In this document: positions 2,207-27,113 of the stretch, piece after piece
Position numbering within the stretch: position 1 is the first letter of the stretch
Layout: each line of letters opens with the position of its first letter
Assembly: GCA_048938105.1 (NCBI GenBank)
Contig: JBHLMN010000025.1
Span: 17,723-81,722 of the forward strand
Direction of reading: 5' to 3'
DNA length: 64,000 nucleotides
Source of the DNA: Promethearchaeota archaeon
GTDB taxonomy: Archaea > Asgardarchaeota > Heimdallarchaeia > Hodarchaeales > Hodarchaeaceae
Made by a program: the position numbers and the translations under genes
Notes under the pieces: generated by a model
What the model was told of the DNA's origin: nothing
Seen by the model: only the letters and a program-made list of their open reading frames with translations
The model's database searches: none

Positions 2207-2671
2207 GTACACTATTTTCCCTATTGTTAGCTCAGTTTCAATGATATAAATTTAGGTTATTTTTCTAAAGAAATAAACCATATATCAATAACGTAGTTTA
2301 AAAATTGATATTTAATGAAGATAAAGCGAAAAATCTTTTTCTTTCCTTGAAGAATGCATAAAATTCTTTCTCTTTTAACTTTTATTTTGGAGATTAAAGG
2401 AGCTCAGGTTTCTTTGCTAACTATGGTTAAATGTATTATGAACAAAATTCGCGAAACATTTTAAAATGATAGTCGCGTTTCTCCCAATTGTTTCTCTAAT
2501 TTATCAATTTCTTTAATGTAAAATATAAAAAACATTTAAATCATGTTATTGTTACATTAACAGAATGGACTGAGAAATCAATCTGTACTCAATTAAAATC
2601 AATAAAAAAACAATGATTCACCTATTACATTATGATAATGGGTGAGGATTGTACTTTACGGCGGTATATTA

Positions 2672-4063: not shown

Positions 4064-4097
4064 ACACTTGGTTGGATCCATCTCTAAAATAAAAAAC

Positions 4098-4157
4098 GAT
4101 AACAGCTCATTCGCTGTTATCTTTACCCTTTTTCCAGAAGTGTGGGGAATGAGGAAG
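4098..4157 (+). terminator. Hairpin plus T-tract after cytochrome 1
   Basis: GATAACAGC-tcattc-GCTGTTATC, then a T-rich run; an equivalent element follows cytochrome 2. Confidence 0.6.
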
Positions 4158-4294
4158 GTTTCGTTGTAAAACATGAGTCTATCGAGCTTGCTTGAAGTGT
4201 TTTCCAAGATTTAATTTTTGCTTTTAAAACTGGTACTTTTTCAATAATCCGCTATAAATTACGATTGTCTTGATACCCCTTCAGAAAAACTGAG

Positions 4295-6469
4295 ATGATT
4301 AAATATATGCAAAATAGTTTATCTACACTACTAAAGTGTAATCAAAGGTATCTTTTCTTGCCTTTACTAGTATTACTTATCATAATCCCTTCGATTATGA
4401 TGTTATCTCCGACTAGTAAAAGGTTGGATTTTGTAGAGTCTCAAAAAAATACTTCTAGTATTTCTCCTAAAGTGAGTAACAACGAACAAGACAACAATCC
4501 TGATGCTTATTTTCCAAATTTTCTTTATTATTCAATTTCAGTGGCAAATGCCCTGATTGATTACTTATACGACAATGATTCTGGTGGATTCTTCCGCTCA
4601 GTTAACCAGTTCTGGTCTAATAATTCCATTAATATGTTGAAATATTCTTATGATCAAGCACAAGCTATTCTTGCATTATTAAAACTTTCTGATGCTGTAA
4701 TTAATGATTCTGAACGTGATTTTGCGATTCATTTTGCTGAATTAATCGGTAATTATATGATAACACGTCTTTATGACAATGAAGTTGGAGGATTCTATAC
4801 ATCCACTAGTAGTTCATATAAAAAGCCAGGAGTGAATGGAAAAGTTATTCAGTCTCTCCTCTCCCTATACAAGACCACTGGCAACATTTCTTATAGAGAT
4901 AAAGCAATTGAAACTTTTGAGTTTATAGACAATTTTGGTTGGGATAGTGAAAGTGGTGGTTATGTTTATCTACTGTCTCATAGTGGTCTCATTGCATCAT
5001 CGAATCCCAGTTCAGCCGATCCTTATGATCCTAACTCAAAAAAAGTAGATCATAATGCTATTATGGGGGAAGCCTTACTTGAACTATATCTTTTAACTTC
5101 TGATCCTTCATACATTTCTAAAGCAACAGAACTTTACCAGTTAATCAACACCTCTTCCAGAGACTATACCACTGAATTGTTCTATATTGGATTTAACAAT
5201 GGTGGAATTGTTGAGCCGGATTATACTGACATTTTTATAAATTCCCTGATGCTAGAGTTTCTATCTCAGCTCTACAACATAACTGGGGATTTGACTTACT
5301 TTTATGATTTTCAATCTTTAATAAATGCTGTTCTTTTAAATTTTTGGGACTCTTCCAATGGAGGATTTTTTGCCACATTCCCCTATAATAGTCAAGTTGA
5401 GAAAGACGAGAAGAAATACACAGAGAGGCAATTTTATGCAATTAGAGCTCTTGATGAGGCCTACAAGTTGACAAACAATAACTTATATTATAATCTCATT
5501 CTGGATGTAATGGAATTTCTAAATAATAATCTCTATGATAATGTTCATGAGGGATACTACCTATTAGCAAACGCTGATGGAACAGAAGGAGAACAAAACT
5601 GGAAAGATAAATATTCTGTTACTCAATCCCTAGCTATCTACGAATTAGCCAATCTCTGGCTTTATAGTAAGCCTAGTGTTCTCAATGCTCTCTGGTCCCC
5701 TTTAAATCCACGACCTTCAGATGCTGTTACGATTAGGATTGCAGCGTTTGATGCGGATGGTCTTTCCACCGTATTGTTGAATTATTCTATGAATAACCAA
5801 CCCTACAAGTTAATAGAAATGACCACCAATGAACTAATAGGGAATATGTATGATTTTACCTTTGATTCTCAACCACATGGCACAACAGTGAATTTTAACA
5901 TCATTGTTAATGATACCTTAGGGAATATCGTTGTTCGAGAGTCATATTTCTTTGTTTGGGAGAATGATATTTTACCTCCTCATATTATGTTATTGGGAAT
6001 AAATCCAAGTAACGAGATTTTTGTCAGTTCTAATTTTAGTATAACTGTGAGTGTACATGATAATCCTCCCCAAGGAGATGTCACGAGTGTTCGTATGTAT
6101 TATAAAGAAACGGGTCAATCAAAGTGGGCATCCAGGGCATTATTTCGGTTAGGTGATTATTTGTGGAGGATAGAATTCCCCGATGGTTTCAAAAAACCTA
6201 ATAGATATGAATACTTCTTTGAAGCAATTGATAATCGAGGAAATTTTGGATTTAGTCCTTATTTTTACTTAGAAGTCTATGGCCATCCAAAAAACTTCCC
6301 ATTAACTGCATTTATTGGTGGCCTTTTTTTCATATTATTTATTGTTCCTGCAGGGATTATTGTTTACAAAGAATACAGTAAAAATAGTGCTCGTACAACC
6401 TTAAGAAACATTAAGAAGACACGCAATGTAAAACGGAGGAAAAAGAGAGGGACAAGACGTATAACGTAG
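4295..6469 (+). CDS. Membrane-anchored YyaL/AGE-like (alpha/alpha)6-barrel protein with Ig-like domains, copy 1
   Basis: Repeated (Y/W)DxxxGG(F/Y) units; KYSYDQAQA resembles YyaL KMLYDxAQ; N-terminal TM, two beta-rich domains, C-terminal TM and basic tail. Confidence 0.75.
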   Translation: MIKYMQNSLSTLLKCNQRYLFLPLLVLLIIIPSIMMLSPTSKRLDFVESQKNTSSISPKVSNNEQDNNPDAYFPNFLYYSISVANALIDYLYDNDSGGFFRSVNQFWSNNSINMLKYSYDQAQAILALLKLSDAVINDSERDFAIHFAELIGNYMITRLYDNEVGGFYTSTSSSYKKPGVNGKVIQSLLSLYKTTGNISYRDKAIETFEFIDNFGWDSESGGYVYLLSHSGLIASSNPSSADPYDPNSKKVDHNAIMGEALLELYLLTSDPSYISKATELYQLINTSSRDYTTELFYIGFNNGGIVEPDYTDIFINSLMLEFLSQLYNITGDLTYFYDFQSLINAVLLNFWDSSNGGFFATFPYNSQVEKDEKKYTERQFYAIRALDEAYKLTNNNLYYNLILDVMEFLNNNLYDNVHEGYYLLANADGTEGEQNWKDKYSVTQSLAIYELANLWLYSKPSVLNALWSPLNPRPSDAVTIRIAAFDADGLSTVLLNYSMNNQPYKLIEMTTNELIGNMYDFTFDSQPHGTTVNFNIIVNDTLGNIVVRESYFFVWENDILPPHIMLLGINPSNEIFVSSNFSITVSVHDNPPQGDVTSVRMYYKETGQSKWASRALFRLGDYLWRIEFPDGFKKPNRYEYFFEAIDNRGNFGFSPYFYLEVYGHPKNFPLTAFIGGLFFILFIVPAGIIVYKEYSKNSARTTLRNIKKTRNVKRRKKRGTRRIT

Positions 6470-8700
6470 TGAATGGAGAAATTACAATGATTTATATTGA
6501 TTTTGGAGCTTTTGGGATGGATTTAGGTATGTTGATATTGCTTTTTAGCCTAGTAGCCCTTTTGATTGATGTCTTTTTAGTGATTTATGGTGGATACATT
6601 GAAAAATGGGAAATTTATTCAGAAATAAGCCTTTCTGCTGGTATTCTGGCTATTATCATCTCTTTCCTATATTTTAGTTATTCAGTTATAACAGCTGATT
6701 ATCACTTCACCTATGTGAGTGATCATATTAACAATGATATGGACTTTTTCTTAAGACTATCAGCCATTTGGTCTGGACAGTCTGGATCTTATTTCTTTTG
6801 GACATTTCTAGTTGTAATGGTTTATTCAATCTTCAGGCTGATGTTCAAAGAGTACGCGCATGAGACAATCTTTTGGCGAGCGTTTGTCTTATCAGCTCTT
6901 CAAACATCTGTTTTGGTGGCCTTAACACTGCTAAGTGATCCGTTTAAAATAAATGATGGTGTTTTTTCCGATGGTATTGGATTAAATCCATTATTAATGA
7001 CGTATTGGAATCTCATACATCCTCCAATTGTTTTCATTGGTTATGCTCTATGTTTAATTCCAATGGTCATTGGAATAACAAGAATCTCTATTCTTAAAAA
7101 TGGTGAGTTGCCAGAATTTGAAGGTAAAGAAAAATTAGATAATTTCTTTGAATTTTTAGTTTCATTTGCATGGCTTATATTAAGCCTTGGAATAATAATT
7201 GGTGCTTATTGGGCTTATATGACTCTCGGTTGGGGTGGTTTCTGGGCATGGGATCCCGTAGAAACAGCTTCGTTGATACCCTGGCTTTTTATAACCCTTT
7301 ATTTCCATGGAAAACCTTTTTTTGGCAAAACTAAATACCTAGAAAATTACATTATTAGCATGAGTTACATTGGTGCTTTGTTTACTACATATTTAACAAG
7401 AAGTAATATAATTTCAAGTGTACACGCATTTCAATCCGAAGCAACTTTAGAAAATATTCTAAAGATTTTTATCCCAGAAAATAGTTTTTTTATGTCCATT
7501 ATATTGCGATTCATTCCTGATGAGAAGATGTTATTACTTTTTATTGTCATAATAAGCACTTTTCTTATCCCACATTATTTTGGAATTAGGAGTAAGGATA
7601 TAACAAGGATTCCAATCTATTTTGAAAGAAAAGATTTTCAAGGATCAAGATCTCATATAACTGCCTTAAAAATCTCCTTTATTTCAGGTCTTATAGGTTC
7701 TTATATTATCATCATAGGTTTGATAACCCCTACTATTTATGATATTGTTGGATATATAATCACTTTCAGTCCAGAGGGAGTTGGTTCAAGCATTGTTGTA
7801 GACCAATTGTATTTTAATACAGTTATAACGATTTTTGGAGGTATAATGTTACTTGCGCAGTTTTTCTGTACTTTTTATCCGAGATTGGATGTTAAGAAGA
7901 AGTTTATGTTAATGATAGGAGGATTAACAGCAGGAATCACATTTTCAATAGGAGGTTTCTTATATCGAAGTGGTTTTCTTAATCAGATTCTTGGAGACAA
8001 AAACCTAATACTTCTCTTATTCAATAACTTCTGGACAACTAGTGACAAAGCAAACTTAGTAATTCCTCTTCTATTTCTGGGAGTGGTTGGATTGCTAGTA
8101 GAGTTTTTAAAAGTGGCTTTTAAAGAAGAAAAGAATGTTATCCGAAAAACATCGCAAATACTGTTACATCTTTCTTTCTTAGTAATTCTCCTTGGTGCAT
8201 TAATGAGTGCAAATATGACTGTTTCTAGTCAAATTTTGGGTCAAGAAGGAGGTGAATATAAAATTCCAGGAACTTCTGTAACAATTATTATTATAGATTT
8301 AGATAGAAGATTTCCTGAATCAGGTTTCAATCGAGTCGAATATGATACACAATTCATGTTGTCATCAGATGCACGAATCATTGCATTTGGAATCAGTAGA
8401 CTCGCTTATGATAAGATAAACCGAATGGATCATGAGGTGACAATAATTAACGATCTCTTTTCTAACATTTACATCGTAACTAGTGGGGTTTTTGAAAACC
8501 CCATTTCTGGAATTTTTGAGGCTGCTTCCCTCCAGATTAAAGTTATACCATATATTAACATTTTGTGGGTAGGATGTCTTCTCCTCCTTTTTGCTATCCT
8601 CCCCTTGACCATAGGGAGATTTATTATCCTGAAAAAGACCTTATCTTTTAGAGAAATAGAACAGAAAGATGTTAAAACGAAAATAGTGCCAATTAAATGA
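6469..8700 (+). CDS. ccmF: Cytochrome c heme lyase CcmF, copy 1
   Basis: WSGQSGS, HPP, WGGFWAWDPVETASL (WWD motif), SVHAF; true start may be ATG 6487 (MIYI, as in the paralog). Confidence 0.93.
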   Translation: MNGEITMIYIDFGAFGMDLGMLILLFSLVALLIDVFLVIYGGYIEKWEIYSEISLSAGILAIIISFLYFSYSVITADYHFTYVSDHINNDMDFFLRLSAIWSGQSGSYFFWTFLVVMVYSIFRLMFKEYAHETIFWRAFVLSALQTSVLVALTLLSDPFKINDGVFSDGIGLNPLLMTYWNLIHPPIVFIGYALCLIPMVIGITRISILKNGELPEFEGKEKLDNFFEFLVSFAWLILSLGIIIGAYWAYMTLGWGGFWAWDPVETASLIPWLFITLYFHGKPFFGKTKYLENYIISMSYIGALFTTYLTRSNIISSVHAFQSEATLENILKIFIPENSFFMSIILRFIPDEKMLLLFIVIISTFLIPHYFGIRSKDITRIPIYFERKDFQGSRSHITALKISFISGLIGSYIIIIGLITPTIYDIVGYIITFSPEGVGSSIVVDQLYFNTVITIFGGIMLLAQFFCTFYPRLDVKKKFMLMIGGLTAGITFSIGGFLYRSGFLNQILGDKNLILLLFNNFWTTSDKANLVIPLLFLGVVGLLVEFLKVAFKEEKNVIRKTSQILLHLSFLVILLGALMSANMTVSSQILGQEGGEYKIPGTSVTIIIIDLDRRFPESGFNRVEYDTQFMLSSDARIIAFGISRLAYDKINRMDHEVTIINDLFSNIYIVTSGVFENPISGIFEAASLQIKVIPYINILWVGCLLLLFAILPLTIGRFIILKKTLSFREIEQKDVKTKIVPIK

Positions 8701-9104
8701 GAGTACATGAAATGATTAGATCTAAAAACCTTATGTTCGCTATAATTATAATGTTTGTAAGTGTAAGTGCATTATTGTTTCTATTAAGTAGTTCCAGTGT
8801 TCCAGTTTTTTCCGTAAAAGAACTTAAAAGCCATTCCCAACCCAGTTCTTTCTTAAATCATAATATTCAAGTGGTAGGTGTCGTTCAGGATATAAATAGT
8901 ACTGGTTTTTTTATAACAGATCCAGAGGATGTAACAAATTCATCCTTGATTATATACATTAATGCGACTAATGTAGAAAAGCCTGTAGGTTTTGAATCTG
9001 GAAAAACTATTCTCGTTGAAGGAAAACTCATTTCAACAACAGGTATGTGGAAGCTAAAAGCGTCAATGATTAGCACTAAGTGTCCATCTAAGTACACAGA
9101 GTGA
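8697..9104 (+). CDS. ccmE: Heme chaperone CcmE, CxxxY (System I*) type, copy 1
   Basis: N-terminal TM, OB-fold-like body, terminal KCPSKY. Confidence 0.92.
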   Translation: MRVHEMIRSKNLMFAIIIMFVSVSALLFLLSSSSVPVFSVKELKSHSQPSSFLNHNIQVVGVVQDINSTGFFITDPEDVTNSSLIIYINATNVEKPVGFESGKTILVEGKLISTTGMWKLKASMISTKCPSKYTE

Positions 9105-10693: not shown

Positions 10694-10993
10694 TTATTTC
10701 GAAGATCCTAAGCTTCCCATTAAGATAAATACCTTTCTCTTTCCAATTTGATTTGACAAGATTGCAGTTAAAATATCAGCAATCAAGTAAGAAGCATAGA
10801 GGGCTGTGTCGAAATAGGAAGCTTTCAATAAGTATAAACTAAACCGCTCAACCAGGAATTCATATTGATTTGTGTGTAGAAGTGTTGGAGTCAAAATGGT
10901 TACGAAAACCAAAACACCCAACACAATGATTTGCGTCATTGAACTGGGATTTATTGCACTCTAGAAATCCCGATCCCTATTTTCCTTTTTCAT
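10694..10993 (-). pseudogene. Truncated MFS transporter N-terminus
   Basis: About 3 TM segments with an MFS motif-A-like LSNQIGKRK, then an early stop; upstream in-frame ATG at 10993 is cut off by a TAG. Confidence 0.6.
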
Positions 10994-11073: not shown

Positions 11074-12027
11074 TTATGGGAGAAAAGAAGTAATGACCAC
11101 TCCCACAAATAACCAGAGAAATGCAAATGCCATAAAAATTGATGCCAGTTTGAAGATCTTAAATGTCCTTTCATGAGATGGTTTTCTAAGATTAGTAAAT
11201 GCTTGAAAAAGGATGAATAAACAAAAAAGAATTAAAGGGAGAAGAGCGAGAAGATTAATTTCTAGACTGATCCCAGCTAGAACAATGATTGAAGCACTAA
11301 GAATAGCTGATAATGTTACAACACGAATTGTTTGGGTTTGACTACTGACTACAGGCCACATGGGGACACCGGCATTCTTATATCCCTCTAGGTTCTTGGG
11401 GATAAGAGCTAGAGTAAGAATATGCAAAGGAATCCAACAGAGAACAAAAAGCCCCATCAATATTGCAGTCAGATCAATTATTCCAATCACTGCAGCTCGC
11501 CCCGCAACAGCTGGGAGTCCTCCTGCAACACCCCCAAAAATTATAGATAACCGTGTTCGTCGTTTTAACAAAAGTGAATAAACAACAACATCAAAAAAAA
11601 ACCCTAAGAAGACAACAACCATTGTAAGAAAATTAACAAATATTCCCACCACCAGAGTACCTGCAGCTGTGAAGAGAATTCCGTGTTTTAACACAGTCGA
11701 AGGAGGAACTCTTCGACTGGGTAAAGGACGATCTCTTGTTCTTTCCATAAGTGCATCAATATTACGATCTACGTACATATTAAGCAATGTGGAGCCAGAA
11801 ATTGCAAAAAAAAGCCCAACAACAAACCAAATGAATGACAATAGGTTGAAGCTTGCGCCCCAAGCGGTTATTAGATGAGCAAAAATTGCAGTATATAGAA
11901 GAAGAAATGTTTGTTTGCTTTTGATAAGTTCCCCGTATGTAGAAAGAGAAAGAGGGGGGTATGAATATTTTACCAATTCTTCATGTTCCAGTTGTTGTTG
12001 GGGAATTTCCATTTCATCCATCAACAA
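11074..12027 (-). CDS. cyoE: Protoheme IX farnesyltransferase (heme O synthase, CyoE/CtaB)
   Basis: NMYVDRNIDALMERTRDRPLPS, YSLLLKRRT, GGVAGGLP, WIPLH, YKNAGVPM. Confidence 0.93.
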   Translation of the reverse strand: MLMDEMEIPQQQLEHEELVKYSYPPLSLSTYGELIKSKQTFLLLYTAIFAHLITAWGASFNLLSFIWFVVGLFFAISGSTLLNMYVDRNIDALMERTRDRPLPSRRVPPSTVLKHGILFTAAGTLVVGIFVNFLTMVVVFLGFFFDVVVYSLLLKRRTRLSIIFGGVAGGLPAVAGRAAVIGIIDLTAILMGLFVLCWIPLHILTLALIPKNLEGYKNAGVPMWPVVSSQTQTIRVVTLSAILSASIIVLAGISLEINLLALLPLILFCLFILFQAFTNLRKPSHERTFKIFKLASIFMAFAFLWLFVGVVITSFLP

Positions 12028-12059
12028 GCCATTCCATAATTACTCAATTGAATAGGGTA

Positions 12060-13643
12060 TTATTCTGGGAACTCCTTAACATCTTTTCTTCCTTTGAGAA
12101 TCTGGATGAGCTGATGGAAACAAAAGATGGTAATTGCAATGACAAAAAGCATTATTCCAAAATCAATTATAAGATTAATTAAAGATAGATTGGGTAGTAA
12201 AGGCATATTGTGAAGCCAGTAATCCAGTACATCATCGTATTTATCTAATTCTGCCGCCCAAGTCTGATCAAAGTGGGGAAAATACATATAGATCGCTGTA
12301 GGAAGAAATGCCATGATGCTACCAGCAAAAGACAGCCAACCCATTGCTATTCGTGGCTTACCTTGAATATCTAATATGTCAATGAAGAAAAGGAGGAGGA
12401 GGATCGCTGATAACACAGCTAAAACGTGCCAATGACCACGGGCAACCGTATCTTCGATAGCTACAGGGCCCGATCGAAATGATACCATACCTGTTACCCT
12501 CGTCAAAATTGAATCATCGCGAAGACTAAGCGCAAGGAATATACCTGTAAAAGTCATTACGAAATTTACCCATATGAATAAGAAATATAACGTAAGTTTC
12601 ACAGGATCTTTGAACACAGCTTTTGCACGAGTAAGCCAGGATGCAGATCCATAAGAATCACCAAGGATTTCCTTACTCGTTTTATTCCAACCAGTTAATG
12701 CCAATATTAAACCAACAGTTACGAGAATTGCTGAGCCTGCATAAATTAGATAATGAATATCAACATCAGCGAATGAATGAATCCACTCGGAGATTGTAAC
12801 AAGCCAACATCCTATTGACATGATGATAAATCCTGGAATAGCAAGTAACATTGAAATAAGATACCACTTCCCCTTTTGATCTGGAACAGTGTACCGATAT
12901 ACAACTAGTAAGATAATCACATCGATAAGTCCCAACATTATATGTAAATGACCCTTAATCCCATCAACAAATATAACTGGGTAAGTAATATAGTCATATT
13001 CTCTAAGAAAATATTCTGCTTGTAATACTGTCAATCCATTACCGAAGAAAGCTCCTATTGACGCTCCGAGTACAACACTTGCTAAGATACAGATAGTAAG
13101 TAGTGCTAATGCAAGTTGTGCGACAAAAATATTCCTACCTGTATCTGGATCTCGTCTTGGGAAGGTCCTGGTTGGGAAAACACCGATAAGTAACATGATA
13201 CCCGCATAGAAACAAAGAGACATCCCTACCAAGAACAGACCATGTAATATCCACGCCTCTGGAAGAATATACGCAAAAATCAGTGCATTCGCAGAAGCTA
13301 AAATACTCCCAATAAATAAAGGCCATTTCACGCGCGATCTAAACTTCTCCCGAACATCCATGAATTCCAGAACAAAATATGTACATACAGCAATGAATGG
13401 AACCGAGATTGCATGATAAACCATAATTATACGGCCCGCTTTTTCAACTGGATCGGGGTCTAATGTCATCCAAGGCTCTACATTTAAGAGTCCCGTTATT
13501 GGTTCAGAAAAGGTCGATAAAAAGAGAACAATACAGAACTCCCAAACAATCGTAAAAGTTATCATTCCTTTATAGGTCAGACCATAATTGATTTTGTACT
13601 TTAACCAGGGAATAATTCCTTCTTCTTTTACTTCAGTCGTCAT
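12060..13643 (-). CDS. Polytopic membrane protein with intramembrane His motifs (putative heme-binding), upstream of cyoE
   Basis: About 12 hydrophobic segments; VYHA, ILHG, GHLH, DIHY, GHWH. Confidence 0.7.
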   Translation of the reverse strand: MTTEVKEEGIIPWLKYKINYGLTYKGMITFTIVWEFCIVLFLSTFSEPITGLLNVEPWMTLDPDPVEKAGRIIMVYHAISVPFIAVCTYFVLEFMDVREKFRSRVKWPLFIGSILASANALIFAYILPEAWILHGLFLVGMSLCFYAGIMLLIGVFPTRTFPRRDPDTGRNIFVAQLALALLTICILASVVLGASIGAFFGNGLTVLQAEYFLREYDYITYPVIFVDGIKGHLHIMLGLIDVIILLVVYRYTVPDQKGKWYLISMLLAIPGFIIMSIGCWLVTISEWIHSFADVDIHYLIYAGSAILVTVGLILALTGWNKTSKEILGDSYGSASWLTRAKAVFKDPVKLTLYFLFIWVNFVMTFTGIFLALSLRDDSILTRVTGMVSFRSGPVAIEDTVARGHWHVLAVLSAILLLLFFIDILDIQGKPRIAMGWLSFAGSIMAFLPTAIYMYFPHFDQTWAAELDKYDDVLDYWLHNMPLLPNLSLINLIIDFGIMLFVIAITIFCFHQLIQILKGRKDVKEFPE

Positions 13644-13827
13644 ATAATAACCTCTTGAGTAATATCTCTTATTATGGTTTTTTGATGGTTTTTTGACATT
13701 TTATCAATTCTTCATAAGAAATATTTATGATTTAATTTCAACTACTTTAGTAAGTTAAGACTGAGATTTCGATATTTTTATTCAATCTTCTGACAATAAG
13801 TAAGTTTTCTATGGTTTTTCTAATTTG

Positions 13828-13851
13828 GTGAGAAAAAAGTAATCTGATAAC
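13828..13851 (-). promoter_or_regulatory. 24-bp shared operator, copy A
   Basis: Minus strand GTTATCAGATTACTTTTTTCTCAC; matches copies at 16455, 16633 and 18408. Confidence 0.7.
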
Positions 13852-13961
13852 TTCCATTCCCAATGATTGGAAAAAAAAAATAAGGTAGAAAAGACATATT
13901 TTCTACTGGATTGTAATTATTTACCTTCAATGTGTTTGAACGTCAATTACTAGGAATTTAT

Positions 13962-14627
13962 TTAGAAAGGGATTTCTGCTTTCCATTTACTGGGTAACAG
14001 AATTCCTAGAACGAAGAAGACTCCAACAATTACTAATAAGAGAGGTAACACATCAAAAATTTGTTGTTCAGTTAAAAATGGATTTTCCAATGCAACAAAG
14101 GCAAGCAATACTCCACCAAATGAAATTAGTAATCCACCAATTGAGAAGAGAATACTTGTCATTTCCGTTTTTTTAGTGAAGGCGGTATAAAGTGGAATAC
14201 CAACAATTGAAAGACCACTGGGGATATGGAGGCCCATTAATACAGGTGAGGAAAAGGCATCAAGACCAGAAATGAGCTCAAGTCGGACAACTGCCAAAAC
14301 TAGTACCATTACAACTGTAAAAATAGTGTAAAATAATCCGTAAGGTTTGTCCTTCCAAACAGCAAAGAATAGTCCAATTGCTAAACAAGCAGGTATAAAA
14401 GCTGCAACTACTGGCACTAAGGGTTCCTTAAGGATGATAAAACCGTTCAATATAATCAAAACTCCCGATACAAACAGAACAAGGAAGCTAATGGCCCATG
14501 CTATATGATAGACTTTCTTATTCTTTAAGTAATTTAAAATAAGCAAGATTGCCATAACTAGTGCCACAACACCAGTCACCAATAATAGTAGTATTGGTAT
14601 TAGGTTCGTTGATATATCATCTAACAT
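13962..14627 (-). CDS. About 7-TM membrane protein of unknown function
   Basis: Hydrophobic throughout; His in YHIAW and GLHIP. Confidence 0.75.
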   Translation of the reverse strand: MLDDISTNLIPILLLLVTGVVALVMAILLILNYLKNKKVYHIAWAISFLVLFVSGVLIILNGFIILKEPLVPVVAAFIPACLAIGLFFAVWKDKPYGLFYTIFTVVMVLVLAVVRLELISGLDAFSSPVLMGLHIPSGLSIVGIPLYTAFTKKTEMTSILFSIGGLLISFGGVLLAFVALENPFLTEQQIFDVLPLLLVIVGVFFVLGILLPSKWKAEIPF

Positions 14628-14903: not shown

Positions 14904-15374
14904 ATGAATAATTACTCAGAAGATGAATGCTCTGCTATGGTCGCTATCAAGATTCTTGGACGGAAGTGGATTCCTTGGATTGTGTGTGAACTCTTATCAG
15001 CGGGAGAACTATTCTTTTCTGACCTCCTAGACAGAATTGAAGGAACTTATGGGGAAAAAATATCCGCAAGAGTCTTATCGGAGTCTTTGTCCAGGTTAGA
15101 AGAGATGAACTTATTAGAACGTACGGTAGTTAGCGAAACAATGCCCATTAGAGTGAGATACTCCTTGACTCCTAAAGGAACAGATCTTCAGGTAGTTTTT
15201 GCGGTTTTAAAGGGGTGGGGAATAAAATGGGGAGACATTCGTCAGAAAAGATGTCGTTCATTCAGTTGTATTCATAATTGTGTTCCAATGATTGATATTG
15301 ATAAAGCAGCAGGTTTGTTGGAACTAAGAGATCCAGAATCACCCCCTCTGAATAAGATTGAGGATTCTTCTTAG
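14904..15374 (+). CDS. HxlR/DUF24-family winged-helix regulator with N-terminal Cys and C-terminal CxxxxCxxxC
   Basis: EC...ILGRKW, FSDL, ISARVLSESL, PIRVRYSLTPKG..L. Confidence 0.9.
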   Translation: MNNYSEDECSAMVAIKILGRKWIPWIVCELLSAGELFFSDLLDRIEGTYGEKISARVLSESLSRLEEMNLLERTVVSETMPIRVRYSLTPKGTDLQVVFAVLKGWGIKWGDIRQKRCRSFSCIHNCVPMIDIDKAAGLLELRDPESPPLNKIEDSS

Positions 15375-15560: not shown

Positions 15561-16295
15561 TTAGGTTTTCAAAGGTACTGGTTTAGGAGAATAGATTACA
15601 TTTAACAATCGTCCAGCAATTTGTGTAATCATCCCAAGTAAGAAACACAACATTCCACCAAAGAACTGAAGTGTGCCTGAGGATAAGAGATAACCATATC
15701 TATCTACACCAATATTTACCCCATCAATTATGTGTGTTGGCATAATTAAAGGTTGAACCATCATTACAATCCCTAAACCAAATAACACAAAAGCAAAGTT
15801 TGCAACTTGAGATCCAACGCTTCCTCCAGAAGAAGAAGCAGGTTCTTCTATATGTACCTTAATTTCTTGCTTAAACTTTGGTAATAATAGTAAGATCAAT
15901 ATGATCAAATTCAGGATCGCTGAAATCCAAGAAGGGGTGAAAAGTAAACCTGTCCGTGGTGTAGAAAAAAAGCCAATTGACATTAATATAGCAGGAATAC
16001 CTCTCCCTATAATTCCTGTAATACTGGCAATAAGGGCTGCTGGATAGAACCACGTTTTTCTAGCCCAATATGCCCAGATAAGAACTCCCCACGCAAGCGC
16101 TGAGAACCAGGTCACAAAGTAAGTGATAAACCAGATTTCTGAATAGTCTCCTGCAATTGCGAATGGCCCCTTTTGCCAAAATGGATCAAGTGATACGCAC
16201 GTACTTCCAATGGCACTAACAACTCCAACAGCTGCTGCCGCACCTATTAAGAATTCCATTTTATGTTGAGTTATTGCTTTTAATATACTACTCAA
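15561..16295 (-). CDS. Membrane protein of unknown function
   Basis: About 6 TM helices. Confidence 0.75.
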   Translation of the reverse strand: MSSILKAITQHKMEFLIGAAAAVGVVSAIGSTCVSLDPFWQKGPFAIAGDYSEIWFITYFVTWFSALAWGVLIWAYWARKTWFYPAALIASITGIIGRGIPAILMSIGFFSTPRTGLLFTPSWISAILNLIILILLLLPKFKQEIKVHIEEPASSSGGSVGSQVANFAFVLFGLGIVMMVQPLIMPTHIIDGVNIGVDRYGYLLSSGTLQFFGGMLCFLLGMITQIAGRLLNVIYSPKPVPLKT

Positions 16296-16454
16296 GTTCC
16301 TAACCTTCTTTTTTCTGATTAAATTTCTGCATTAATTTTTAGGATGTACAAGGCTTGAAATTTCAACTAATCATTTGATTGACTATCAAAAATTCAGTTC
16401 TTGGTTCCTTCCAATGTTGCGAATAAGAGCATTTGGTAAGATTTGAATAATATA

Positions 16455-16478
16455 GTGAGAAGAAAGTAACCTGATTAC
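16455..16478 (-). promoter_or_regulatory. 24-bp shared operator, copy B
   Basis: Minus strand GTAATCAGGTTACTTTCTTCTCAC. Confidence 0.7.
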
Positions 16479-16632
16479 TTAGTAAGGGAAAAAACCAGAA
16501 TAAAAATCATCCTAAAAATATACTACAAAAAGCTTTGAAATTAAGATGTTAATTACTTCCCGAGAATTACAGCGCTATCCCACACGATTTATTAAATTCA
16601 CAATTACACTAAGCCTATAAACAACCTTGCAT

Positions 16633-16656
16633 GTTATCGGGTTACTTTCTGTTTAC
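16633..16656 (+). promoter_or_regulatory. 24-bp shared operator, copy C
   Basis: GTTATCGGGTTACTTTCTGTTTAC followed by TTGATTATTGAAAACTTAGAAAA. Confidence 0.7.
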
Positions 16657-16808
16657 TTGATTATTGAAAACTTAGAAAACACTTCTTATTGAAGGAGGGT
16701 GCCTTTTAATAGAGCCCCCTGAAATTTCAATGATCATTCTGATGATTGATTGATATTTCAAAGAGAATTGGGGCTTAATGGCATTAATAAACATGAGGAG
16801 ATAAGGAT

Positions 16809-18185
16809 TTGAATGGAAAGCCGAAACATACCATGCTTTTAACCTCAGTGATTGCTATATTTTTCTTGATCGGAGGAGTATTTGTTATTAAAACTTCTGT
16901 TCATTTTTTCCCGATAGATAGCTCAATTGATTCGAATTTAATTAGCAATGAAGCGAATAAAGTTATTCCTCAGAATTACACCAGACGGGAGGTTATGAAT
17001 GTTCAACAAGACGCGTGTTGTGGTCATACTGATACAACTCCTCCTACAATACAAATCAATTCGCCTGCTAATAATTCCTTTGTACTTGGAGGTACAATTA
17101 TTGATCTAAAAATTTTTGATGATAATCCGTTTTATGATTACGAAGCAAAACAAGTCCTTTATCGTTGGGGAACAGACCAAAGTAATACAACCCTTGACTC
17201 TCCTCATAATGTGGTTATATCAAATGATATTGGAACATATGTTTTGTATGTCTATGCAGAGGATAATGATGATAATTGGGGTTCAGCTATATTCAGTTTT
17301 ACAGTTACATTAACTTACAATCCACCGACTATAGAAATAATTTTCCCCAGCACTAGTAATCAAACTCTTACAGGAATGAAGTTATTCAGTGCCAATGTGA
17401 ATGATGATAATGGAATTCTCGACGTAAAAATACAAATCGATGTAGTGGTGGATGGTGTTAGGTATCCTGGTCGTACTTACCCTATGTATTATAACGAGAC
17501 ATCTAGTTATTATGACATGAATTTCAATGTTTCATCGCTGACTAATGGCTACCATTGGCTTGTAACAATCGCTACAGATCTTGATGGGGAACAGCACATA
17601 GTTACTAAAGAAATTGATTTTACAGTTATTGGTGGGATAGGAGTAATTGTGGGGGGTGATCCACCTGAATGGGATCAAATCCAATCAGTTCTTCCCAAAA
17701 ATGTTAGTAAATATATCGAAGAAGATAAATTCTCAGATTACGAGGCAGAAGTTGGTGATGTTTACTTTAAGCTGGTTGTATCTGATGAAGTGGGAATTGC
17801 AGCAGTTGATCTCACAGTTTACGCGTTGGATGATTTTGATAATAGTACTGGTGAGTTTGAGCTTGGTGATGCTCGGATAGAATTATCTGAATCTCTAAGT
17901 CAAATTGGAACCAATGGAAACTGGCTTATATATGAATATACATGGGATAGCACATCTTCTTTGGATAATTATTATCTATGTAAATTTGAAATCCAAGATG
18001 AGGATACGATAACGAATCGCTTAATAATCAGCATAGTTCTTGAGATAGACAACGTTGTTGATGATCAACCAACCGTTGACTTTGGTTCACCAGGGTTTGA
18101 GGTAGAAATACTAATTCTCGCTCTGTCAAGTTTGGTTCTCTTAGCTGTCCTTATCAACCGTAATCATACTCACAAGAATGACTAG
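16809..18185 (+). CDS. Secreted acidic Ig-like-repeat surface protein with PGF-type C-terminal anchor
   Basis: Signal/TM segment; D(T/N)xPPxI-type Ig repeats; SPGF+TM tail; ACCGH near the N-terminus. Confidence 0.8.
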   Translation: MNGKPKHTMLLTSVIAIFFLIGGVFVIKTSVHFFPIDSSIDSNLISNEANKVIPQNYTRREVMNVQQDACCGHTDTTPPTIQINSPANNSFVLGGTIIDLKIFDDNPFYDYEAKQVLYRWGTDQSNTTLDSPHNVVISNDIGTYVLYVYAEDNDDNWGSAIFSFTVTLTYNPPTIEIIFPSTSNQTLTGMKLFSANVNDDNGILDVKIQIDVVVDGVRYPGRTYPMYYNETSSYYDMNFNVSSLTNGYHWLVTIATDLDGEQHIVTKEIDFTVIGGIGVIVGGDPPEWDQIQSVLPKNVSKYIEEDKFSDYEAEVGDVYFKLVVSDEVGIAAVDLTVYALDDFDNSTGEFELGDARIELSESLSQIGTNGNWLIYEYTWDSTSSLDNYYLCKFEIQDEDTITNRLIISIVLEIDNVVDDQPTVDFGSPGFEVEILILALSSLVLLAVLINRNHTHKND

Positions 18186-18407
18186 AGAACTAGACTCCAA
18201 TCATCTCATCTTTCCCCAAGATTGCTATTTGTTTATTTTGTGATTCAAATTTTCTCATTTTTATTTCCAGAATTATTATTAAAATAATCATGTTCAAAGG
18301 TGTAGAAGACAACCAAACCTACTCTGACTTAGAATTCCATAGGTTCTCTGCTATTATACCTCAACACAGGGTACTCTAATGATGATAATTTCGAGTATTT
18401 TTTACAT

Positions 18408-18431
18408 GTAATCAGGTTACTTTCTACTTAC
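18408..18431 (+). promoter_or_regulatory. 24-bp shared operator, copy D (cytochrome 2 promoter)
   Basis: GTAATCAGGTTACTTTCTACTTAC followed by TTGATTATTGAAACCTTAGAAAA. Confidence 0.7.
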
Positions 18432-18615
18432 TTGATTATTGAAACCTTAGAAAATCTTCTAAAAGTCGTAGGATGTTCTTTATCAGACTTGAAATTTCCT
18501 TAATCTTTCTTATGATTAATCGAAATTTCAAACAGAGCCTATTCTCAAAAATTTAAATCAAAACAGAAATTTGCAGTAACTTTAAATGAAATCCAAAAAA
18601 AATGGCGGAATTTTA

Positions 18616-20178
18616 ATGAATGACCAAGAAGAGATCTTAGTACGCCAAAGTAAGTGGAACGGTCGCAGAGTTGTATTGCTCTACTGGTTTGCTATTGTCT
18701 TCATTGGAACAGCAACAGCTGCTGGTGTTGGAGCTGGTGTTTTAAATCCAAAATACCAGTTTAAAGTGGAACAATACACCCATGACGATAAATTCGGCGA
18801 TGGAACTATCTGGCATCCCGAAGAATGTGCTACTTGCCATCCAGCGGAATACGAAGGTTGGAACCAAACTCTCCACTCTTATCTTTTCGCTGAGTATAAT
18901 GAATCTTATTTGATTCATTATAGCGGTACTTACCAGAACACAACCGCATTCCTGGAAAGTAAAGGCTGTTGCCATGTAACAAATTGGTACAATGATACTT
19001 CTGTTGACCCTTCAGGTGAACTTAAAGTTTGGGATTATGGAGTGACTTGTGCAGCTTGTCACGAGGATCCGGATAATGGATTTGATCCCGTGGGTTATAT
19101 GCCATTCGGTCCAGCATCCTACCCCTGTGGTGGTTATGGTATGAAGGGTATGCCACTATGTCATATCCCCCGTGGTGTTTCTCAGTTTGATATGATTGGT
19201 CCTCACTCCCAAGCGCTCGATGATTTGCTTGCTAGTGACGATATAGACGATTCTTGTCTCCATTGTATGACTGGAAATGGTCTTGTCTATGGTTATGGCC
19301 CAGGTGAAAACAAAAGCTATGAGTACGGAGAACTTATCGGTATCGAGTGTTATGTATGCCACAATCCTATGGGTGTTTCCAATGAACTGTATAAAGAGGA
19401 TAAATATCCTAATCTTACTCTTAATTCTACACTGAGAGCAAATAGTATTCCTGAACTTTGTGGAGAATGTCACAGCGGAGATTACGACTCATCTTATGCA
19501 ATGATAACAGATACTACTGTTCAAGGTCCCCATTCAAACTTCGATTGCACACAATGTCATGGATATTACTTAGATCCTGCAACTGAGTCGCAAAATGCTT
19601 CTTTTGAGCTCAATCATACATGGACACTCAAACTTCCTGATGCGTGTGCTACTTGCCATCTTCCTACGGGTACAAACATGAGTGCTCTCAATGCCACAAT
19701 AATGGCAACTACTATGGAATCTAGGATGGAGCTCCTTGAGGGCATCCAAGAAGATATTGCAGCATTAGTAGATACAGTTGAAACTGAGATAACAGCCACC
19801 ACCACCAAAGCAGACGAAGCTGCAGCAGTTTCAGGTGCTGATGAGGATGAAATCGCTGAAATTTACCTCTTGATTGAAGAAGCTAAAGCCTTGGTCGAGT
19901 TTGTTGAAGCCGATCCAGCAGGTGGATTCCACAATCCTGATCTCACGGAAGTAAAACTACAGTTGGCATTGACTAAGTTATCTTGGGCGAAAACAGCTGC
20001 AGAAGCTATAATCACTCCCCCAGGTACCACCACTGAAGAACCGTTAACAGTAACCAAAACCACACATGCAACTGAAACTATAACTGAAACCACAACTGCA
20101 GCAGCAACAGCTATTGGTATCTTAGCAGTACTCAGTATCCTCAGTGCAACCGTTCTTTTCCAGAAAAAAAGGCGTTAA
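18616..20178 (+). CDS. Surface-anchored multiheme cytochrome c 2 (paralog of 2672..4063)
   Basis: Sites CATCH, GCCH, CAACH, CX10CH, CLHCM, CYVCH, CGECH, CTQCH, CATCH; DPAGGFHNP; Thr-rich linker, TM, KKRR (ORF track start 18586). Confidence 0.92.
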   Translation: MNDQEEILVRQSKWNGRRVVLLYWFAIVFIGTATAAGVGAGVLNPKYQFKVEQYTHDDKFGDGTIWHPEECATCHPAEYEGWNQTLHSYLFAEYNESYLIHYSGTYQNTTAFLESKGCCHVTNWYNDTSVDPSGELKVWDYGVTCAACHEDPDNGFDPVGYMPFGPASYPCGGYGMKGMPLCHIPRGVSQFDMIGPHSQALDDLLASDDIDDSCLHCMTGNGLVYGYGPGENKSYEYGELIGIECYVCHNPMGVSNELYKEDKYPNLTLNSTLRANSIPELCGECHSGDYDSSYAMITDTTVQGPHSNFDCTQCHGYYLDPATESQNASFELNHTWTLKLPDACATCHLPTGTNMSALNATIMATTMESRMELLEGIQEDIAALVDTVETEITATTTKADEAAAVSGADEDEIAEIYLLIEEAKALVEFVEADPAGGFHNPDLTEVKLQLALTKLSWAKTAAEAIITPPGTTTEEPLTVTKTTHATETITETTTAAATAIGILAVLSILSATVLFQKKRR

Positions 20179-20222
20179 ATCTAGATAACAAATTTCGCAT
20201 CATAGTTCATTTCCAAAGCAAG

Positions 20223-20280
20223 AACAGCAGTTTTCTGCTGTTTCTTTTGCCTTTTTTTTCCAAGTGTTCGGGAGCTGAGG
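20223..20280 (+). terminator. Hairpin plus T-tract after cytochrome 2
   Basis: AACAGCAG-tttt-CTGCTGTT, then T8. Confidence 0.65.
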
Positions 20281-20419
20281 TAAGTATCGCTTTTTTTGCT
20301 TTCTATGATATTATCTCTAATTTAAAAGAATTAAAAGAAACTAATTCCCGTCTTATCATAAAATAACTGCCTTCATCATAAAATAATTGTGTGAAATTAC
20401 TAAAGAGATGGAATAATTC

Positions 20420-22657
20420 ATGATAAATAAAGTAAATATCCAAGTTATTTCTCTAAGAGAATGGTTGTTATATTTCTTCATATCTATATTAATATTAGGT
20501 ACAACTCTACCAAGTATTACGTCTTTTACTCAAATAAATTTCACTTTTATTACTATGGAGAATAATAATCAGAAACTGTCTTGGAATCATGGCATCAAAC
20601 CTGATATAAAGCCTCTTTTCCCTTTTAAATCGGTAAATCTGGTTGAAGACAACCCAGAAGCATATTTTCCAAACTTTCTTTATTATTCTGTTGAAATTGC
20701 GAATACTCTTATTGATCATTTATACGACAATAAATCTGGTGGATTCTATCGTTCCGCTGATCAGGAATGGTCTAATAATAGTATAAATAGACTGAAATAT
20801 TCTTATGATCAAGCTCAAGCGATTATTGCACTACTAAAACTATCAAATGCCGTAATTAATCAAACAGAAAGGGAATATGCTATTAAAATTGCAAAGAGAA
20901 CAGGAAAATGCTTAATCACTGATTTACTTGACGTTCAATTTGACGGATTCTTTATTAGTGAGTCAAACAGACTTAAAAAACCTGGAGTTCAAGCAAAAGT
21001 AATTCAGGCACTTCTTTCTCTTTACAAATTAACAGAAAATCTTACCTATCGAGACATGGCTATTAATACTTTTAACTTCCTAGAAGTCGACGCATGGGAA
21101 AATATCGACGAGAATAAAGGATATTACAATTATCTATTGTCTCACACAGGTTTGATCGCTACGTCAAATCCAGAGACAGAGGATCTATATGAACCCAAGG
21201 CAAAGCGAGTAGATCATAATATATTAATGGGTGAAGCATTACTAGATCTTTACCATATAGAATCAGATGAGATATACTTAAGATATGCTAGGCGAATTTA
21301 TAATTTCTTTAATACCACATGTAGGAATAGTACTACTGGGCTATTTTATACTGGATTAAATGACAATAATGAAATTGTAGAAAATAGGTCAGCTGATTTA
21401 TTCATTAATTCCCTTGTGCTTGAATTTTTAGCTCATTTATATACTGCCACTGAGGAGCAGAAATATTATGATGATTTCTTTACCTTATTATATAGCGTAT
21501 TAGGTAATTTTTGGGACGATTTATATGGGGGTTTTTATAAAACTTATTCTTATGTAGGGCCTGAAGCAAGAGACAAAAAGAAACACACAGAAAGACAATT
21601 TTACGCTATTAGAGCTCTTGATGAAGCGTACAAACTTACCAACAATAGTCTATACTATAACCTTATTTATGACATGATGGAATTTTTAACTAATAAACTC
21701 TATGACAATGAGAACTTCGGATATTTTCAAGAGGTTAATCAGGATGGAACAGAAGGACAACCATACTGGAAAGACAAATATGCTGTAACTCAATCCTTGG
21801 CTATCTATTCATTCGCAAATCTCTGGTTGTATAGTAAACCAGGTGTTCTTAATGGAGTTTGGTCACCCTCAACACCCCTAGCTGATCAAGATTCAGTGAC
21901 CATTTCAGTTGCTGCTTTTGATTCTGATGGGCTATCAAATGTTCTTTTCAATTATTCAATAAATAATGATCCATACAAACTTGTAGAAATGGTTCCACAT
22001 AAGCTTATTGGGAATATGTTTGAAACCATGATGGAAGCCCATCCTGATGGTACAACAGTCAATTTTAATATCATTGTCAATGATACTTTTGGTAACAAAA
22101 TTGTTCGTGGTTCCTATTTTTTCCTTTGGCAGATTGATGTTTGGGCTCCTCAAATCTTCGTAATTAGTATTGATCCTGGAATTGAAATCCCAGTCCACAA
22201 AAACTTTTCGATTATTGTAACTGCACAAGATGTGCCTTCGCAAGGTAGTGTTGAATATGTGCGCATGTATTATCACCTTGCAAATAAGCCTGAAGAAACA
22301 ATTTCTTTAAAACAAATGAGTATCGGATCATATTATTGGAAAGCATCTTTTTCTGAAGGAATCCCAACACCTGGCACATATTTATATTATTTTGAAGCAA
22401 TAGATAATAGGGGGAACCCTGGATTTAGCTATACTAGCTCTTTTTCCATTCTAGGCTACCTAGAAACGCTACCTGCATCACTTGTATTTGGTGTACTACT
22501 TCTAATACTTGTTTTCATTCCTGCGGGGCTCTATACATATGTGGAATTTAAGAAAAAGAGTGCAAGAAAAACATTAAAGAATATAAAGAGGGCACGAAAC
22601 CGGAAAGGGAGAGGAAAGAGAGGAGCAAAAAGAATTAGAAGCACAAAGGAGAAATAA
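20420..22657 (+). CDS. Membrane-anchored YyaL/AGE-like (alpha/alpha)6-barrel protein, copy 2
   Basis: Shares AYFPNFLYYS, KYSYDQAQA, TERQFYAIRALDEAYKLTNN and ANLWLYSKP with copy 1. Confidence 0.75.
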   Translation: MINKVNIQVISLREWLLYFFISILILGTTLPSITSFTQINFTFITMENNNQKLSWNHGIKPDIKPLFPFKSVNLVEDNPEAYFPNFLYYSVEIANTLIDHLYDNKSGGFYRSADQEWSNNSINRLKYSYDQAQAIIALLKLSNAVINQTEREYAIKIAKRTGKCLITDLLDVQFDGFFISESNRLKKPGVQAKVIQALLSLYKLTENLTYRDMAINTFNFLEVDAWENIDENKGYYNYLLSHTGLIATSNPETEDLYEPKAKRVDHNILMGEALLDLYHIESDEIYLRYARRIYNFFNTTCRNSTTGLFYTGLNDNNEIVENRSADLFINSLVLEFLAHLYTATEEQKYYDDFFTLLYSVLGNFWDDLYGGFYKTYSYVGPEARDKKKHTERQFYAIRALDEAYKLTNNSLYYNLIYDMMEFLTNKLYDNENFGYFQEVNQDGTEGQPYWKDKYAVTQSLAIYSFANLWLYSKPGVLNGVWSPSTPLADQDSVTISVAAFDSDGLSNVLFNYSINNDPYKLVEMVPHKLIGNMFETMMEAHPDGTTVNFNIIVNDTFGNKIVRGSYFFLWQIDVWAPQIFVISIDPGIEIPVHKNFSIIVTAQDVPSQGSVEYVRMYYHLANKPEETISLKQMSIGSYYWKASFSEGIPTPGTYLYYFEAIDNRGNPGFSYTSSFSILGYLETLPASLVFGVLLLILVFIPAGLYTYVEFKKKSARKTLKNIKRARNRKGRGKRGAKRIRSTKEK

Positions 22658-22659
22658 TA

Positions 22660-25312: not shown

Positions 25313-25444
25313 GGATTTTTTATGAAAAATGGTTGTTAATAAAATGTCTATTATTTGTATGTGGAAATATGTTTTCATGTTGAGACATTACTTTTTCTTA
25401 AATACACTGGTTACTTATAAAACCACAGTGGTGATTAGATAACG

Positions 25445-26125: not shown

Positions 26126-26157
26126 AGCTGGCTGGAAATTAAGAGGTGATGATTATC

Positions 26158-26313: not shown

Positions 26314-26389
26314 AACACCATAATAAGCAGAATAACAAAGATCTTCGCTGATTGTATGGAAATGGATAAATTAAACAGAGTGTGCTAAG

Positions 26390-27100: not shown

Positions 27101-27113
27101 ACCTTGGGGATGA

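Follow-up and report, generated by a model that had tools for sequence, protein, structure and literature searches.

Why would an archaeon keep a gene for haem O synthase when its genome contains no ordinary haem-copper oxidase (HCO) to receive the product? The question is raised by a 64,000-nt stretch of DNA (the window) from a Promethearchaeota archaeon of the family Hodarchaeaceae (assembly GCA_048938105.1, contig JBHLMN010000025.1, forward-strand positions 17,723 to 81,722). Three open reading frames (ORFs) follow one another on the minus strand of the window. In order of transcription they encode a 221-aa protein with seven transmembrane (TM) helices, here called c3 (13962-14627), a 527-aa protein with 12 TM helices (12060-13643), and a 317-aa haem O synthase (CyoE/CtaB/COX10; 11074-12027). 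A gene for a 244-aa membrane partner, c4 (15561-16295, minus strand), lies upstream of c3. The 527-aa protein is predicted to have the fold of HCO subunit I. In our judgment, there is about an even chance that it is the catalytic subunit of an undescribed and very divergent HCO branch that depends on haem O and reduces a small oxidant, with nitric oxide (NO) the likeliest substrate, followed by O2 or H2O2.

An initial annotation, made from the DNA alone, had placed the 527-aa gene 32 nt upstream of cyoE, with a 7-TM gene before it and no terminal oxidase nearby, and all three observations held. The gap between the stop codon of the 527-aa gene and the TTG start codon of cyoE measures 32 nt. 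A spacer of 318 nt that includes a T-run separates c3 from the 527-aa gene in the window, and the ORF positions in several related loci imply a gap of only ~10-14 nt between these two genes. The 317-aa protein scored 215.0 bits against TIGR01473, for which the equivalog cut-off is 210.3 bits, matched PF01040 (2.5e-48), and contains the N-x3-D-x3-D motif (Asp-rich, UbiA-type) in its translation. The lack of a terminal oxidase proved to reach beyond the neighborhood: profile searches of the whole genome (5.85 Mb, 99% complete) detected neither PF00115 (COX1) nor PF02628 (CtaA). The genome encodes one cytochrome bd oxidase, on another contig, and the 317-aa gene is its sole cyoE.

The 527-aa protein belongs to a family without an existing annotation. 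Of the 68 close homologues, all labelled "hypothetical", most belong to Heimdall-, Hod- and Thorarchaeota; Anaerolineae and Bacillota contribute others. We aligned 26 homologues (29-75% identity) and found no relevant Pfam or NCBIfam match for them or for the 527-aa protein. PF00115 was matched neither by the 527-aa protein (E ≤ 0.01) nor by any of the 26 homologues (E ≤ 10). Comparison with PDB sequences returned COX6A2 (E 1.1) and an 87-residue stretch of MrpB (E 5e-4) that resembles TM bias, and both matches were judged spurious. The intramembrane YH, HG, GHLH and GHWH motifs listed in the initial annotation were all located, at Y76-H77, H134-G135, G231-H232-L233-H234 and G403-H404-W405-H406. 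Their His residues, on whose conservation that annotation depended, are conserved: H77, H134, H232, H234, H404 and H406 are invariant among the 26 homologues, as are a seventh His, H297, and R71, Y76, Y125, E210, R214, R390, E397 and D494. In a wider set of 35 homologues, extending down to 21% identity, H77, H232 and H404 are invariant and the other four His are conserved in at least 90% of the sequences. An in-frame TGA in two copies (genomes G001 and G016) was considered as a selenocysteine codon and rejected; it is a natural stop near a shorter C-terminus.

We predicted the structure of the 527-aa protein with AlphaFold2, using the 26-homologue alignment as input (pLDDT 86.1, pTM 0.88). When the translation was compared with the model helices, the positively charged loops were found to alternate as for a 12-TM protein with both termini inside. 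The top 50 Foldseek matches in the PDB were all subunit I of the A, B or C oxidase families or qNOR, with near full-length alignments, TM-scores of ~0.45-0.56 and E values from 5e-3. VIA, a search independent of Foldseek, was run against 48,161 chains. It ranked CcoN (3mk7_A; Z 19.9, 416 residues aligned) and NorB (4xyd_A; Z 19.4, 400 residues aligned) first, followed by eight further HCO chains (Z 14.4-18.8), all ten alignments spanning ~400-420 residues, and the next matches were unrelated helical bundles with Z of 10.4 and below. CtaA/COX15, an 8-TM protein with paired His, was not among the top rows of the fold searches. An HCO catalytic-subunit fold is well supported by this modelling. 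The fold comparison that the initial annotation had proposed thus led, by Foldseek, VIA and hhalign, to HCO subunit I and neither to a transporter nor to CtaA.

The hhalign comparison indicates which oxidase features are kept. We aligned the family, in local mode, with a COX1 reference built from 11 Asgard HCO genes (E 3e-4, probability 38%). H77, H406 and H404 align with the invariant H104, H412 and H410 of COX1 (posteriors 0.77-0.99): the posterior is 0.77 for H77 against the TM2 haem His and 0.99 for GHWH against the TM10 GHFH. E397 aligns with the Asp of the His-Asp pair preceding TM10 (posterior 0.39), and the segment with E210 and R214 aligns with the Trp-Gln-His...Trp start of TM6 (posteriors 0.7-0.84). 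H232-x-H234 of TM6 falls inside the His-Pro-x-Val-Tyr stretch of the oxidases, in a register that is uncertain (posterior 0.23). Neither the His of that stretch nor the TM7 His-His pair has a His partner in the family alignment, which confirms the earlier remark that the canonical HP..Y and HH CuB motifs are missing. TM7 (259-292) has no conserved His; at haem depth it carries the invariant G278 and W280, conserved at a level of at least 90%. H297 lies ~10-17 residues past this position, at the outer surface. TM6 and TM7 contain no conserved Tyr; the only invariant ones are Y76 in TM2 and Y125 at the end of TM3.

The positions of these residues in the model form a simple pattern. H77 in TM2, H232 and H234 in TM6, and H404 and H406 in TM10 are each 9-12 residues in from the outer end of their helix, at one depth. 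H134 is found at the outer start of TM4 and H297 at the outer end of TM8, at the TM7/8 junction. The model places E210, R214, R390, E397 and D494 on the outer face, together with H134 and H297. In the inner halves of the helices, comparison of the invariant residues with the model found no conserved polar residues for a cytoplasmic proton channel. As judged from the alignments, the haem-binding half of the catalytic centre is kept, and the half that binds copper or non-haem iron has lost its known form.

We then determined how widely the family occurs and with which genes. Pattern scanning, with each species represented by a single genome, gave a count of at least 588 genomes that encode it. 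These belong to the Asgard archaea and to Chloroflexota (mainly Anaerolineae), Aminicenantes, Bacillota (Symbiobacteriaceae), Bacteroidota and Thermodesulfobacteriota, a bacterial spread of at least five phyla. Co-occurrence with cyoE, a check also suggested by the initial annotation, is pronounced. Of the 80 loci kept, 66 have a cyoE homologue immediately after the family gene, in the same orientation. The family is carried by 19 of 20 genus-level relatives and COX1 by only about half of them; the PF00115 genome search finds COX1 in relatives but does not report the 527-aa locus. Among 40 relatives, cyoE is confined to genomes with the family or COX1, and 10 of the 40, including the single-contig genomes G009 and G015, have the family and cyoE without COX1. 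The complete Anaerolineaceae chromosome G040 shows this combination too. Within a class-level sample of 151 Anaerolineae genomes, all 28 family-positive genomes have cyoE (23 of 23 with COX1 and 5 of 5 without). In family-negative genomes, cyoE was found in 61 of the 67 that have COX1 and in 17 of the 56 that lack it.

This conservation bears on whether the protein still works as a redox enzyme. A degenerate oxidase relic, kept for a non-redox role as scaffold, sensor or transporter, would be compatible with the loss of the copper site and with sequence drift past the reach of Pfam. However, archaeal and bacterial members alike strictly conserve the haem ligands and many further residues, the gene is retained within a multi-gene module that includes a cofactor synthase, and it is near-universal among the genus-level relatives. 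We regard a relic as the least probable of the explanations considered here.

The synthase itself belongs to a lineage linked to the family. The CyoE of the window is 37-40% identical to bacterial CyoE encoded beside the family gene, versus 28-31% to other Asgard CyoE encoded beside COX1. In a maximum-likelihood tree of 77 CyoE sequences, all 62 family-adjacent copies group with 4 recent Asgard paralogues in a single clade (SH-aLRT 100), to which no COX1-adjacent copy of either domain belongs. Archaea and bacteria split within this clade, with supports of 99 and 98. The same split (100) recurs in the 12-TM protein tree, which has 26 of its 57 splits in common with the CyoE tree; both were quick trees with few outgroup sequences. 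Genomes that carry both systems have two cyoE genes, one next to each, and four genomes with canonical COX1 (G002, G004, G006 and G020) have the family-adjacent cyoE only. Because of the fold, the retained haem ligands, the synteny with cyoE and the dedicated CyoE clade, we read the 527-aa protein as an HCO-related protein that probably binds a prenylated haem, which agrees with the new prenylated-haem membrane protein envisaged in the initial annotation.

Two side observations concern cyoE. One contig labelled as a Methanosarcinales archaeon (L056) encodes a CyoE that falls within the Anaerolineales clade, 0.02-0.03 substitutions per site from those of loci L051 and L045, and this contig probably represents bacterial DNA binned by mistake, not a copy from an archaeon. 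We also inspected the "orphan" cyoE of five Anaerolineae genomes that lack both COX1 and the family, and found no family gene, c3, c4 or COX1 beside it. In two of the five, the orphan adjoins NarI-like and HdrD/CCG-type Fe-S genes (L131:7903-9958 in G096 and L132:8085-9200 in G058), which suggests another non-oxidase context for haem O synthase homologues.

The initial annotation had offered a haem-modifying enzyme as a second possibility, and the same data bear on it. The protein could handle haem O for others, either as an alternative haem-modifying enzyme analogous to haem A synthase or as a chaperone that passes haem O on. The tight coupling to cyoE speaks for such a role, as does the reliance of the four genomes with canonical COX1 on the family-adjacent cyoE; in genome G059, moreover, the family gene is directly downstream of a gNOR-like HCO. 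Yet the predicted fold is that of HCO subunit I and not of CtaA, PF02628 is absent from the genome, and the full HCO set of haem ligands is retained. A COX1-type client was not found in G000, G009, G015, G027 or G040, so that these COX1-less genomes show no recipient for a modified haem. The haem-modifying enzyme therefore gained no support, and we consider a role in haem O handling quite improbable.

We clustered all ORFs of the 80 loci and the window (81 loci) to identify the partners of the family gene. c3 adjoins it in 42 of the 81 loci, in archaea and bacteria, and often as two copies in bacteria. It has one invariant His (H134 in c3 numbering) and an invariant Ile-Pro, and its AlphaFold2 model (pLDDT 93.6) comprises seven TM helices, as the initial annotation had described. 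A fold search with this model returned only generic seven-helix bundles resembling G protein-coupled receptors, with flat Z values of 11-14, and COX3 was not among the top 50. c4 is present in 39 of the 81 loci, again in both domains; its TM1 contains an invariant Cys, and a His-x5-Asn motif is conserved in a loop. For c3 and c4 we found no Pfam match and no PDB sequence relatives, c3 also lacked an NCBIfam match, and their Atlas clusters were unannotated only. No NorC-like gene lies next to the family gene in any of the 81 loci, and no CcoO or CcoP partner gene and no recognizable COX2 or COX3 homologue was seen beside it.

Regulators and a lipoprotein complete the module. A gene for an HxlR-family regulator (14904-15374, plus strand; PF01638 2.2e-16) is divergently transcribed in the window. 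The protein shows weak similarity to the redox regulator RrpB (NF047364 3.6e-16, below the cut-off), and such a regulator is kept beside the module in 15 loci, mostly Asgard. A Crp/FNR-type regulator is encoded upstream of the operon in 25 bacterial loci; Asgard loci have HxlR instead. In 37 bacterial loci, the 12-TM gene and cyoE are separated by a gene for a protein that has the fold of formylglycine-generating enzyme (FGE)-sulfatase proteins and carries a lipoprotein signal with an invariant Cys. A function as sulfatase-maturing enzyme was rejected, as the protein is without the catalytic Cys pair of FGE. In Symbiobacterium sp. (L058:2567-4927, plus strand), a 786-aa fusion carries the FGE-like domain on the C-terminus of the 12-TM protein. 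The two parts are joined via an extra hydrophobic segment, which is the retained lipoprotein signal and likely a 13th TM segment. Because the fusion runs through this segment, the FGE-like domain should lie on the outer face.

Cytochromes c are a further, less frequent, association. Two multihaem cytochrome c (MHC) genes adjoin the module in 8 bacterial loci, Ccm and MHC genes flank it in the window and in several Hodarchaeales loci, and a NapH-like Fer4_5 protein is encoded in 4 loci. These genes would suit a non-catalytic cytochrome with two haems that shuttles electrons between the quinone pool and extracellular or periplasmic MHCs in extracellular electron transfer, with a TM6 His making the second haem bis-His. 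In the window, the module lies between two MHC-CcmF-CcmE sets, and the promoter element of c4 is common to a surface-anchored hexahaem cytochrome. However, most loci are without a nearby cytochrome c gene, and the seven invariant His together with the Glu, Arg and Asp of the outer face exceed the needs of two bis-His haems. A dedicated haem O synthase would be unexpected for simple electron-transfer haems, and the stress-type regulators and the FGE-like partner would be left unexplained. Such a cytochrome is improbable in our view, and comes second among the alternatives.

Which oxidant the protein would reduce can be approached through its neighbors. HCO families without the active-site Tyr have been read as enzymes that do not reduce O2 and proposed to be NO reductases, and eNOR has been shown to be one (PMC11214002). 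Hemerythrin-DUF438-PAS_10 genes neighbor the family gene in 8 loci, and one is located 16 kb away in the window. In a subgroup of Anaerolineae, genes of this type stand beside the family gene together with DUF166 and methyltransferase genes. The operon in G059 comprises genes for a methyltransferase, NDH-2, a cupredoxin-like subunit, a COX1-family protein, the 12-TM family protein, hemerythrin-DUF438-PAS_10 and DUF166. Its COX1-family protein (PF00115, 221 bits) has Asp at the position of the TM6 active-site His, keeps the TM7 His-His and has no Tyr; we class it as gNOR-like because of the Asp and the absent Tyr. The gNOR-like COX1-family genes of Anaerolineae at L125:8316-9944 (minus strand) and L126:10627-12357 (plus strand) are preceded by genes for the cupredoxin-like subunit and NDH-2. 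G088 encodes the hybrid-cluster protein Hcp and the same gNOR-like HCO within 8 kb. NirV has the FGE fold, which the lipoprotein partner of the family shares. NirV frequently accompanies the copper nitrite reductase NirK (PMC4770552). As far as gene neighborhoods can indicate, these associations point to nitrosative or oxidative stress.

The protein might instead be a true O2 reductase, possibly of high affinity, with which anaerobes scavenge trace oxygen, using haem O together with a distal site of an unconventional kind. The O2-reducing A and B families typically have prenylated haems, the FNR/FixK-like and HxlR/RrpB-like regulators suggest control by O2 or redox state, and the family is widespread in organisms that also bear cytochrome bd. 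On the other side stand the missing conserved Tyr in TM6 and TM7, the absent three-His copper site and the inner helix halves without conserved polar residues for a proton channel, as well as the reading of known Tyr-less families as not reducing O2 (PMC11214002). We consider an O2 reductase of this kind unlikely, although it is the foremost of the alternatives.

For the preferred reading, a catalytic HCO-like subunit, we propose the following mechanism. A low-spin haem would be held by H77 and H406, and H404 would bind a haem O in the high-spin state, made by the neighboring synthase. The distal pocket would be rebuilt around the TM6 His and contain either another metal or no metal at all. 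The oxidant, a small diatomic molecule or a peroxide, would be reduced on the outer half of the membrane with electrons from quinol or from surface or periplasmic MHCs, and protons would be taken from outside, as in cNOR. NO would be the likeliest substrate and would give the protein a role against nitrosative or oxidative stress in anaerobes, with O2 and H2O2 as alternatives. The specific proposal of a high-spin haem O facing a His-only distal pocket, metal-free or with a new metal, in a membrane NO, O2 or H2O2 reductase of anaerobes is a tentative one, and we put it at clearly less than an even chance.

Several observations weigh against this assignment. Sequence methods alone leave the 527-aa protein outside COX1, and the TM6-TM8 part of the hhalign alignment is unreliable (posteriors 0.1-0.3). 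A TM6 His could act as a sixth ligand, which would make the second haem low-spin and restrict it to electron transfer. The CyoE of the window is barely above the TIGR01473 cut-off and some members of the family-linked clade score 204-210 bits, just under it; the product could be a different prenylated tetrapyrrole. cyoE is kept in 17 of the 56 Anaerolineae genomes that lack both COX1 and the family, and haem O synthase homologues therefore have further contexts. The NO-related context is found in a minority of loci and in related, non-independent genomes, and in the gNOR-bearing bacteria gNOR itself could be the client of cyoE.

We compared the family with known members of the superfamily. It resembles CcoN (3mk7_A) and NorB (4xyd_A), which are minimal 12-TM HCO subunits, in fold, in the TM2 His and in the TM10 HxH ligands. 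It differs from them in that the 527-aa protein is only 8-11% identical and has no PF00115 match, the TM7 His-His and the FeB Glu pattern are absent, and an HxH in TM6 replaces the single His. cNOR takes protons from outside, and the conserved charged residues of the family, confined to the outer face, are a point of likeness with it. The three-His FeB pattern of cNOR and qNOR is missing; the family does have two invariant Glu, E210 and E397. cNOR and cbb3 use haem B only, whereas the family is linked to a haem O synthase. With bo3 (1fft/6wti) and ba3 (3s8f/3eh3) it shares the fold (VIA Z 16.8-17.5, Foldseek E 5e-3 to 1e-2) and, putatively, a prenylated haem made by CyoE/CtaB. Unlike these A- and B-family oxidases, it lacks the HPxVY motif, the His-His pair and the cross-linked Tyr, and residues of a D or K channel are not detectable.

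Further parallels are the eNOR, sNOR, gNOR, nNOR and NOD families, which are HCO scaffolds with altered active sites for which NO reduction has been proposed or shown (PMC11214002). gNOR has one active-site His replaced by Asp, eNOR uses a prenylated haem, and the Tyr-less families retain two or more of the three active-site His and have cupredoxin partners (PMC11214002). Described HCO families all keep the active-site His save for this His-to-Asp change in gNOR (PMC11214002). Judging by the gNOR-like neighbor, such families are within reach of the COX1 profile, whereas the 527-aa family is outside it. The latter also lacks the TM7 pair and is accompanied by c3, c4 and the FGE-like lipoprotein instead of cupredoxins. 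A literature search found no paper describing the 527-aa family.

Haem O synthesis has entered the discussion of oxygen use in Asgard archaea. All Heimdallarchaeia lineages have been reported to encode haem O biosynthesis enzymes (10.1101/2024.07.04.601786), and an analysis of aerotolerance genes grouped haem O synthase with the Cox subunits (10.1101/2025.02.26.640444). Neither preprint mentions the 527-aa protein, and the haem O synthase genes reported in both may have the family as their client. Ten relatives have cyoE and the family without COX1, and inferences of oxygen use near the eukaryote lineage therefore need to take this alternative into account. If our assignment is true, the ability of Hodarchaeales and other Asgard archaea to make haem O does not by itself indicate aerobic respiration, and the presence of COX10/CyoE would be read differently in reconstructions of the archaeal ancestor of eukaryotes. 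It would also mean that the scaffold and haems were kept and the second half of the binuclear centre was rebuilt, implying a wider chemistry for a well-studied superfamily. Anaerobes of sediments and digesters, among them Anaerolineae and Aminicenantes, commonly carry the family, which may matter for the turnover of NO, N2O and O2 at oxic-anoxic interfaces. The proposal is directly testable, as Symbiobacterium has cultured species and the module comprises only four to six genes.

The surroundings of the module in the window are rich in cytochrome c genes. Two parallel gene sets flank it (2642-9104 and 18586-25312), each encoding a hexahaem cytochrome, a large glycosidase-like membrane-anchored protein (724 and 745 aa), CcmF and CcmE. 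In the second set, CcmC, CcmA and CcmB follow (18586-27803 overall). In both cytochromes, six CXXCH motifs are accompanied by Ser/Thr-rich linkers and a hydrophobic anchor at the C-terminus. That of the second set, cytochrome 2 (530 aa; 18586-20178, plus strand), has a Thr-rich linker, matches the Pfam families C554, C7 and C552, and is a possible electron partner of the 527-aa protein. Together these genes give a Hodarchaeales-like Asgard archaeon a full System I pathway for cytochrome c maturation and surface-anchored MHCs. One preprint, using a search for class I cytochrome c domains, reported no cytochrome c in Cox-bearing Heimdallarchaeia.

A repeat search of the window identified a ~50-nt element in three copies that are 81-89% alike. 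Two form an inverted pair (16426-16478, inverted, and 16627-16679) within the divergent spacer that separates c4 from a gene (16809-18185, plus strand) for a Big_7/Y_Y_Y surface protein of 458 aa, which carries a PGF-type anchor at its C-terminus. The third (18402-18454, plus strand; 89% identical) lies upstream of the cytochrome 2 gene and repeats a 30-nt core exactly at 18415-18444, for which the chance expectation is 0 matches. The element is probably a shared promoter or operator. The initial annotation had linked the 527-aa protein to cytochrome 2 through a shared operator; the element is real, but it ties cytochrome 2 and the Big_7 gene to c4 and not to the promoter of the 527-aa gene.

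Two minor features remain. At ~10700-10945 (minus strand), an 82-aa remnant is 71% identical to residues 8-89 of a 408-aa MFS transporter; the gene for this transporter follows cyoE in related Hodarchaeales loci, and the remainder is missing in the window. The hemerythrin gene mentioned above encodes a DUF1858-DUF438-hemerythrin-PAS_10 protein (29515-30909, plus strand) that may be a sensor of NO or O2. DUF1858 corresponds to the N-terminal domain of the RIC (repair of iron centres) proteins. Without this N-terminal domain, the protein has the architecture that adjoins the family gene in some Anaerolineae loci.

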